Assembly: GCF_003334255.1 (NCBI RefSeq)
Contig: NZ_QOWU01000020.1
Reading direction: 5' to 3' (one strand)
DNA from: Escherichia coli
Lineage (GTDB): Bacteria; Pseudomonadota; Gammaproteobacteria; Enterobacterales; Enterobacteriaceae
Length of the DNA stretch: 64,000 nucleotides
Shown here: piece after piece, positions 28,154 to 28,425 of the stretch
Position numbering within the stretch: the stretch's first letter is position 1
How the letters are laid out: every line of letters begins with the position of its first letter
The notes under the pieces: generated by a model
Told to the model about the DNA's origin: nothing
Database searches by the model: none
The model's input: the letters and a program-made list of their open reading frames with translations, nothing else
Translations under genes and position numbers: made by a program

Positions 28154-28260
28154 TGATAGCCTCCGTGGCCCGTGGTCTTATTTATGATTAACAGCCTGAT
28201 TCAGTGAGAGAACCTGCCGTTTCTTGAGTTGCCGCGATGTTAAGAAAACATTCATAAATT

Positions 28261-28282
28261 AAATGTGAATTGCCGCACACAT
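28261..28282. promoter_or_regulatory. CRP-binding site candidate in the divergent glpTQ / glpACB control region
   Basis: TGTGA-ATTGCC-GCACA (TGTGA at 28264-28268), near-consensus to TGTGA-N6-TCACA; region 28300-28370 also holds tandem ATG(A/C)GCG-like GlpR half-sites. Confidence 0.4.
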
Positions 28283-28425
28283 TATTAAATAAGATTTACA
28301 AAATGTTCAAAATGACGCATGAAATCACGTTTCACTTTCGAATTATGAGCGAATATGCGCGAAATCAAACAATTCATGTTTTTACTATGGCTAAATGGTA
28401 AAAAACGAACTTCAGAGGGATAACA

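Follow-up and report, generated by a model that had tools for sequence, protein, structure and literature searches.

The glpTQ-glpACB region of Escherichia coli K-12 (Larson, Cantwell & van Loo-Bhattacharya 1992; Yang, Gerhardt & Larson 1997; Kurabayashi et al. 2017, PMC5352689) is the closest described system, and it is in fact the same locus as the one analysed here, with nothing that differs. Next come the glpD and glpFK regions, which belong to the same glp regulon: their GlpR operators are tandem 20-bp sites that follow the consensus also used for the putative operators at glpT/glpA, and CRP is a co-activator. Compared with glpD and glpFK, the putative operators at glpT/glpA are weaker, with at most 15 of 20 matching positions, they are spread over two promoters, and they overlap with activator sites. 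Moreover, ArcA acts at glpD, whereas it is probably FNR that acts at glpT/glpA. With regard to promoter architecture, the systems to compare are class II promoters, in which the activator is centred near -41.5, as at galP1 (CRP) or at narG and dmsA (FNR). Like these promoters, the two promoters of the glpT/glpA region have no recognisable -35 element, and the distance from the activator centre to the -10 element downstream of it, counted to its first base, is 29.5 bp, and there is an extended -10 on the glpA side. Unlike typical class II promoters, the FNR box has only one good half (7/10), and two modules are opposed in a single 272-bp spacer.

The locus and its conservation

In the window, which is the whole 64-kb stretch of E. 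coli DNA that was analysed, a 452-aa open reading frame on the minus strand ends at 28153 and a 542-aa open reading frame on the plus strand begins at 28426. The genes and the spacer between them are:

25714-26790, minus strand: glpQ, periplasmic glycerophosphodiester phosphodiesterase, second gene of glpTQ (NCBIfam equivalog NF008354, E=5.8e-213)
26795-28153, minus strand: glpT, glycerol-3-phosphate:phosphate antiporter (open reading frame; NCBIfam equivalogs NF008433 and TIGR00712; RefSeq b2240)
28154-28425: divergent glpTQ/glpACB control region, 272 bp, 36% GC, identical to MG1655
28426-30054, plus strand: glpA (NCBIfam NF008313, E=0; RefSeq b2241)
30044-31303, plus strand: glpB (NCBIfam NF003718, residues 77-495 of the open reading frame 29816-31303; RefSeq b2242, 2354265-2355524)
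31225-32490, plus strand: glpC, extent of the mechanical open reading frame (NCBIfam TIGR03379, E=1.2e-230)

Downstream, glpT is followed by glpQ and glpA by glpB and glpC, as identified with the NCBIfam models. The true start of glpC is probably near 31300, as the family match opens at residue 25-28. The 4.4-kb MG1655 segment from glpQ to glpB, including the 272-bp spacer, agrees with the window without any differences, and a 1-kb query over the glpT/glpA junction was matched in 5420 of 5426 complete E. coli genomes. Window coordinates were obtained by subtraction of 2,324,221 from U00096.3 coordinates; this offset carries the K-12 glpQ annotation (2349935-2351011) to the position of glpQ in the window, and it was cross-checked with the yfbM ArcA box of Park (2,384,825, U00096.2), which is the top ArcA-matrix match of the window at 62579. 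The first-pass annotation had described a compact divergent glpTQ/glpACB region with an AT-rich intergenic stretch of about 270 bp. Gene identities and the identity with MG1655 agree with this description, and the measured values are 272 bp and 36.4% GC, compared with 51.2% in the whole window. The stretch 28154-28425 is the textbook glpTQ/glpACB control region of E. coli and as such already-known biology.

A genome scan with GlpA gave 80 loci in Enterobacteriaceae, in 67 of which glpT is found divergently upstream, and the spacer measures 249-276 bp in 66 of these 67 loci with both genes. We aligned 57 non-redundant spacers and scored each consensus at the aligned positions per species. Conserved outside the genes are the glpT ribosome binding site, GCGATGTTAA, both CRP half-sites, GCGAATATGCGCGAAATCAAACAA and T[A/G]TGGCTAAATG, and the strongest of these blocks is GCGAATATGCGCGAAATCAAACAA at 28349-28372.

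The CRP site and the glpT promoter

The leftward promoter comprises the following elements:

28160-28164, minus strand: glpT ribosome binding site, GGAGG, read from the sequence (the AGCCTCCGTGGCC block hardly varies among the 57 species)
28189-28201, minus strand: match AATCAGGCTGTTA to the IHF consensus in the glpT leader, about +30 to +42, exact to WATCARNNNNTTR
28230-28232, minus strand: predicted glpT transcription start, approximate (28232 from the numbering of PMC5352689, 28230 from the position of the -10 element)
28237-28242, minus strand: glpT -10 hexamer TAACAT, within the conserved GCGATGTTAA block at 28234-28243, the reverse complement of which contains TAACAT
28261-28282: cAMP-CRP site, class II, for glpT (core TGTGA-N6-GCACA at 28264-28279, centre 28271.5)

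The CRP-like TGTGA-N6-GCACA that the first-pass annotation had placed at 28264-28279 is found at exactly these coordinates, and it is above chance already on the E. coli sequence: the core matches at 9 of 10 positions, a score that only 8 of 1000 dinucleotide-shuffled versions of the spacer reach, and the pattern TGTGAN6KCACA has its sole match in the 64 kb there (0.38 expected). The site is conserved across Enterobacteriaceae, with a mean of 8.2/10 at 28264 in the 57 species (z=5.1), and in 42 of the 46 species whose CRP site is intact its centre is 29.5 bp away from the upstream edge (-12 position) of the glpT -10 element. The site is also the very sequence that is protected by cAMP-CRP in a published DNase I footprint, as the footprinted AATGTGTGCGGCAATTCACATT occurs verbatim as reverse complement at 28262-28283 (PMC5352689). 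In the numbering of that study the CRP 22-mer covers -30 to -52 of glpT, and crp and cyaA mutants lose glpT expression. In a cross-species prediction with PhyloScan, the glpT/glpA CRP site ranks 2-3 genome-wide (PMC1794230).

The sigma-70 scan gave no canonical -35/-10 pair for either the glpT or the glpA promoter, which is expected for activator-dependent promoters without a -35 element. The only generic pair that it gave, TTGAAC-18-AATAAT at 28310-28281 on the minus strand, fits neither of the two promoters and was set aside, as was the direct repeat TGA[G/A]TTGCCGC with its two copies at 28225 and 28266: considered as a second CRP half-site, CTTGA-N6-GCGAT reaches only 4/10 against the CRP core. 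Terminator-like matches are located in coding sequence or at the ribosome binding site and were discounted. With 6 copies in the window, the IHF pattern is about as frequent as chance predicts (4.3 expected), and 28189-28201 is poorly conserved; binding of IHF downstream of the glpT start was reportedly seen by Yang, Gerhardt and Larson in 1997.

Candidate GlpR-type operators, the FNR-like box and the predicted glpA promoter

For GlpR, the 20-bp operator consensus WATGTTCGWT/AWCGAACATW was used, with WATGTTCGWT as half-site, a consensus that is said to go back to Zhao and co-workers in 1994. It was validated at independent loci, where it finds the 20/20 palindrome TATGTTCGATAACGAACATT of glpD together with a tandem 14/20 neighbour, and two adjacent operators of 15/20 and 14/20 at glpFK. 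In the spacer, the candidate sites are:

28262-28281: putative GlpR-type operator over the CRP site (13/20; mean of the 57 species 12.6/20, z=3.9)
28302-28321: putative GlpR-type operator AATGTTCAAAATGACGCATG, which includes ATGTTC (13/20; up to 15/20 across species, z=3.1)
28344-28353, plus strand: putative GlpR-type half-site TATGAGCGAA (ATGAGCG; 7/10), a direct repeat of the next half-site
28354-28373: candidate composite of the best GlpR-type operator TATGCGCGAAATCAAACAAT and an FNR-like box (GlpR 15/20; mean 15.6/20, z=5.8)
28394-28413: putative GlpR-type operator AATGGTAAAAAACGAACTTC over the predicted glpA start (14/20; mean 12.6, up to 16/20, z=3.9)

The strings ATGTTC, ATGAGCG and ATGCGCG had been noted within 28300-28370, and they are located there, at 28303, 28345 and 28355. 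Counted in E. coli only, half-sites are as frequent as chance predicts: the spacer has 11 with at least 7/10 where shuffles have 10.1 +/- 2.9 (P=0.45), and 3 with at least 8/10 (P=0.24). The best 20-mer, 28354-28373, is modestly unusual in that 31 of 1000 shuffles equal its score. The interpretation of the repeats as GlpR operators therefore does not follow from the half-site count, but it agrees with the conservation at fixed positions (z=3.1-5.8) and with the four operators of the literature, and it is this cross-species evidence that makes the GlpR-type sites convincing. The range 28300-28370 that had been given for the operators likely holds 28302-28321 and 28354-28373, while further candidates lie outside of it at 28262-28281 and 28394-28413. 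The first of these two is a tentative assignment, as its score is inflated by the overlap with the conserved CRP site. All operator boundaries are computed and may be shifted relative to published footprints.

The ATGCGCG of E. coli is replaced by ATGTTCG in Enterobacter and Lelliottia and by ATGCTCG in Klebsiella, and the columns of 28344-28353 read TGCGCGAA, TGCTCGAA or CGCTCGTT in other genera. As the replacing sequences remain GlpR-type half-sites, they support the assignment to GlpR. In the Enterobacter group, the columns of 28303-28320 form the perfect palindrome ATGCGC-AAAAAA-GCGCAT. The operators are spaced by 40 bp from 28262 to 28302 and again from 28354 to 28394, which would fit a 20-bp register; the 20-mers between the paired operators are weak, and the two operator groups are 52 bp out of register with each other.

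Could the weaker motifs, i.e. the ATGAGCG at 28345 and the stretches 28262-28281 and 28302-28321, be chance similarities, so that only one or two real intergenic operators exist? The half-site counts at shuffle expectation and the scores of at most 13/20 would be in line with this, as would the remark in the Reg-Seq paper that 9 of 17 RegulonDB GlpR sites have at least 9 deviations from the consensus in 22 positions. A chance origin is nevertheless difficult to combine with z values of 3.1-3.9 at fixed positions, with the symmetric palindrome of Enterobacter and with the 40-bp distances between the strong sites. It also conflicts with the four intergenic GlpR operators and the repression loop that are ascribed to Larson 1992 in PMC2946308. 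We thus regard this explanation as unlikely. According to the same source, CRP induces only one of the two operons, and the regulatory logic of GlpR and glycerol-3-phosphate has been described elsewhere (PMC4790336). Operators have also been reported inside glpA; the best E. coli match there, 28800-28819, has 13/20 and is not conserved, and cross-species scoring revealed no clear GlpR peak in the first 980 nt of glpA.

The remaining elements of the spacer are assigned to FNR and to the rightward promoter:

28317-28386: approximate extent of the 70-bp DNase I footprint of FNR(D154A), converted from the text of PMC5352689 and good to a few bp
28388-28396, plus strand: putative extended -10 element of glpA, TGgCTAAAT (hexamer 28391-28396)
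28403, plus strand: predicted start of glpA transcription, to within 2 nt, as placed by the -10 element together with the class II geometry
28415-28419, plus strand: glpA ribosome binding site GAGGG, read from the sequence (GAGG is conserved)

The FNR-like box ATGCG-CGAA-ATCAA at 28355-28368 has its centre at 28361.5, and its left half includes the ATGCGCG mentioned above. FNR was scored by consensus and cross-species comparison. With 7/10 matches to TTGAT-N4-ATCAA, the E. coli box does no better than chance, its score being reached by 943 of 1000 shuffles, and a motif scan of the E. coli sequence alone would therefore fail to support it, but across species the position 28355 has a mean of 7.6/10 and reaches up to 9/10 (z=4.8). 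The block T[A/G]TGGCTAAATG at 28386-28397 is nearly invariant in the 57 species, and the distance from the centre of the FNR box to the first base of CTAAAT (28391) is 29.5 bp in 54 of 55 species. The distance between the CRP and the FNR site, on the other hand, drifts between 88 and 91 bp among species. Fixed spacings of 29.5 bp within each promoter together with a drifting distance between the two activator sites are what is expected of two independent class II modules with activators at -41.5. In the DNase I footprint, FNR(D154A) protects about 70 bp beginning 32 bp upstream of the CRP site, and the FNR motif TTGAT-TTCG-CGCAT, given at -123 to -136 of glpT, is verbatim the reverse complement of 28355-28368 (PMC5352689). 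Footprint, conservation and geometry thus support FNR, whereas the score of the E. coli sequence does not.

Both glpTQ and glpABC have been listed as FNR-activated, and in the hns stpA strain glpABC expression depends on O2. In Myers 2013, the hns stpA double mutant is the only strain with an FNR ChIP-chip peak at glpT/glpA, a weak one with nearly equal averages (0.43 vs 0.37), no FNR peak being called there in the wild type under anaerobic conditions with glucose, and the high-scoring predicted FNR sites of Table S6 in that study include no glp entry.

A more restrictive interpretation of the block 28349-28373 would assign it to a single protein, either as an FNR site or as a GlpR operator, the other match being a coincidental similarity of AT-rich sequence. 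The two consensuses indeed both fit loosely to ...TG..CGAAATCAA..., the FNR match in E. coli is at the chance level described above, and the sole base-resolution evidence for FNR is the broad 70-bp footprint with the D154A variant. However, the conservation does not end with the FNR 14-mer but continues into ACAA (28369-28372), as would be required for the right half-site of a GlpR operator, and the genus-specific left halves ATGCGCG, ATGTTCG and ATGCTCG are all of GlpR type. FNR, on its part, is indicated by the invariance of ATCAA, by the left half TTGCT in Atlantibacter and Cedecea, which raises the FNR match to 9/10, and by the exact 29.5-bp spacing from the box to the -10 element, for which a repressor operator would have no need. 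It is therefore quite unlikely that the block serves a single protein.

The strongest version of a dual function would be that 28354-28373, the 20 bp of highest conservation in the spacer, serves as the FNR box and at the same time as the strongest operator of GlpR type, that the box is positioned at -41.5 of a glpA promoter marked by the extended -10 element that is invariant across the family, and that GlpR would directly exclude FNR there, mirroring the exclusion of CRP at glpT. We consider this specific claim very doubtful. RegulonDB and EcoCyc probably imply such a direct exclusion of FNR by GlpR already. The position of the glpA start is of relevance in this context: Larson is said to have placed the two starts about 132 bp apart in 1992, by which the glpA start would come to lie near 28362 and not at 28403. 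If the direct exclusion were true and the older glpA start lay at such a different position, the FNR-dependent promoter, which has phylogenetic support, would be a revised or an additional assignment. The supplements of Federowicz 2014, which were consulted for start sites, have no glp entry.

Probable working of the two promoters

Taken together, it is very likely that the region consists of two class II activator-dependent promoters that are arranged back to back and that are each masked by GlpR. To the left, cAMP-CRP bound at 28261-28282, i.e. at about -41.5, would recruit RNA polymerase to the glpT promoter with its -10 element at 28242-28237 and its start at about 28230. To the right, FNR would act from the weak box at 28355-28368, about -41.5 of a glpA promoter that has an invariant extended -10 element and a predicted start at about 28403. 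The two activator centres are about 90 bp apart, which would place FNR at about -130 from glpT and CRP at about -130 from glpA. Such a position of FNR relative to glpT is consistent with the reported enhancement of CRP-dependent glpT expression by FNR. GlpR is a repressor of the DeoR family that is inactivated by glycerol-3-phosphate. Its putative operators would cover the CRP site, the FNR box and the glpA start, with one more at 28302-28321 between the modules, and from these overlaps it would follow that both activator sites as well as the glpA start are occluded when the inducer is lacking. According to the literature, the operators in addition cooperate by looping, also with distant operators. 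A competition of GlpR with CRP and with FNR is suggested by the arrangement of the sites, and the exact operator boundaries and the start of glpA are likewise inferred.

What other factors might act on this region? The first-pass annotation had named GlpR, CRP and the anaerobic regulators FNR and ArcA, and for the first three of these, literature and conservation are in agreement with that. For ArcA, they are not. A direct binding of ArcA, which would add to the redox control, could appeal to two marginal matches to a matrix made from 115 ChIP-derived boxes (Park 2013 Table S3), one with 11.4 bits at 28237-28254 and one with 11.3 bits at 28295-28312 on the minus strand, and to 12/15 matches with the older 15-mer consensus at 28254, a value reached by 43 of 1000 shuffles. 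The maximum of 11.4 bits in the spacer corresponds, however, to about the 5th percentile of the 115 boxes and is equalled at 12-13 positions in the 64 kb, so that ArcA would fail in a motif scan of the E. coli sequence. Furthermore, the matching stretches are poorly conserved, and the ArcA ChIP-chip and ChIP-seq tables in the supplements of Park 2013 contain glpD/glpE and no entry for glpT or glpA, in agreement with an ArcA site at glpD. We therefore dismiss direct ArcA control of the region, which is highly improbable. The chance that the conserved blocks reflect a structured RNA, such as a leader or a small RNA, is close to nil: small inverted repeats do exist, e.g. 28379-28388 with 28395-28404, but at E<=1 the only Rfam match in 27900-28700 is a chance one of 16 bits inside glpA, the predicted fold of the glpT leader is not better than that of shuffled sequence (z=-1.4), and most conserved blocks are upstream of both starts, and the Rfam and folding results led us to dismiss this explanation.

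The two opposed class II promoters under GlpR are a re-identification of a classic multi-operator divergent control region of E. coli, and as a discovery this carries little weight, since the finding is already-known biology with nothing new in it. The cross-species map, with its two class II modules and their exact spacing from activator to -10 element, is useful as a sanity check for the annotation of sites. The region is of some practical relevance because GlpT is a route by which fosfomycin enters the cell, and the control by CRP, FNR and GlpR therefore affects the susceptibility to this antibiotic (PMC5352689, PMC4790336).

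Variation of the glpT-glpA spacer

Within E. coli, the glpT-proximal half of the spacer (28154-28300) is polymorphic, as exemplified by strain SCPM-O-B-8794 (locus L004), whose spacer is about 90% identical to that of K-12. The differences lie in the flanks of the CRP site and in its N6 spacer, while the CRP half-sites are unchanged. This polymorphism agrees with our search using a 1-kb query across the glpT/glpA junction, which half of the complete E. coli genomes match at 95-99%.

The alignment of Enterobacteriaceae spacers reveals one segment that is Escherichia-specific:

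28281-28300: ATTATTAAATAAGATTTACA, between the CRP site and the operator at 28302

At the columns of this segment, nearly all non-Escherichia Enterobacteriaceae have the strongly conserved TTGTTACAGAAATATGACA, which is weakly GlpR-like, with about 11 of 20 positions matching the GlpR operator consensus.

Further features in the spacer, in glpA and at yfaL/nrdA

In E. coli CFT073, an NsrR ChIP-seq peak has been reported 41 bp upstream of glpA, two NsrR 11-mers have been predicted at this peak, and glpA is down-regulated under NO stress (PMC5320621). Both predicted 11-mers are found in the window:

28327-28337: predicted NsrR 11-mer ACGTTTCACTT
28370-28380: reverse complement of the predicted NsrR 11-mer AACATGAATTG

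The spacer also contains two repeats:

28379-28404: inverted repeat (10-6-10) with the arms TTTTTACTAT and ATGGTAAAAA, on either side of the glpA -10 element
28225-28235 and 28266-28276: direct repeat, copies TGAGTTGCCGC and TGAATTGCCGC, 41 bp apart

In the spacer alignment, the arms of the inverted repeat are only partially conserved in other genera. The direct repeat, with one copy at the glpT start and one within the CRP site, is probably due to chance.

Two candidate sites were detected inside the glpA coding region:

29235-29252, minus strand: ArcA-like site TTGTAATCAATACGTAAA, 15.5 bits with the ArcA matrix
28800-28819: best GlpR-like 20-mer within glpA, AGCGCGCATTATCGAACCTG, 13/20

Just one position in the 64 kb outscores the ArcA-like site, whose score is close to the median for real ArcA boxes; the ArcA ChIP tables contain no glpA entry. 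In the cross-species scoring, conservation of the GlpR-like 20-mer is restricted to Escherichia and some Citrobacter; the 20-mer may correspond to one of the operators that the literature places inside glpA, or may be unrelated to them. As to FNR, Myers 2013 gives for the wild type a ChIP peak at yfaL/nrdA (2,342,590 in U00096.2), which by coordinate conversion is located at about 20347 in the window.

glpT and its CRP control in other genomes

In the clinical isolate E. coli 14EC001 (L084, NZ_CP024127.1), the glpT coding sequence carries an IS1A insertion in its 5' part, which splits the gene into two pseudogene fragments and leaves the control region intact; strain 361 (hit H2) is an entry of the same kind. 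The insertion plausibly disables one of the routes by which fosfomycin is taken up.

The fetched flank upstream of glpA yielded no glpT N-terminus at thirteen loci (L035, L039, L042, L045, L046, L055, L056, L059, L060, L062, L063, L066, L069), which belong to Kluyvera, Pseudocitrobacter, Klebsiella spallanzanii and some others. The gene order could differ there, or, as a few of the loci are short, the absence could be artefactual.

In Kosakonia and Superficieibacter relatives, the left CRP half-site is degenerate in the spacer alignment (L023, L025, L029, L043, L047, L048, L052, L053, L067, L071, L072), and in some of these loci the stretch from the CRP site to the glpT -10 element has small indels. 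These changes suggest that CRP control of glpT is weaker or altered in Kosakonia and Superficieibacter relatives. The module of FNR box and glpA -10 element is intact in the loci with the degenerate half-site.
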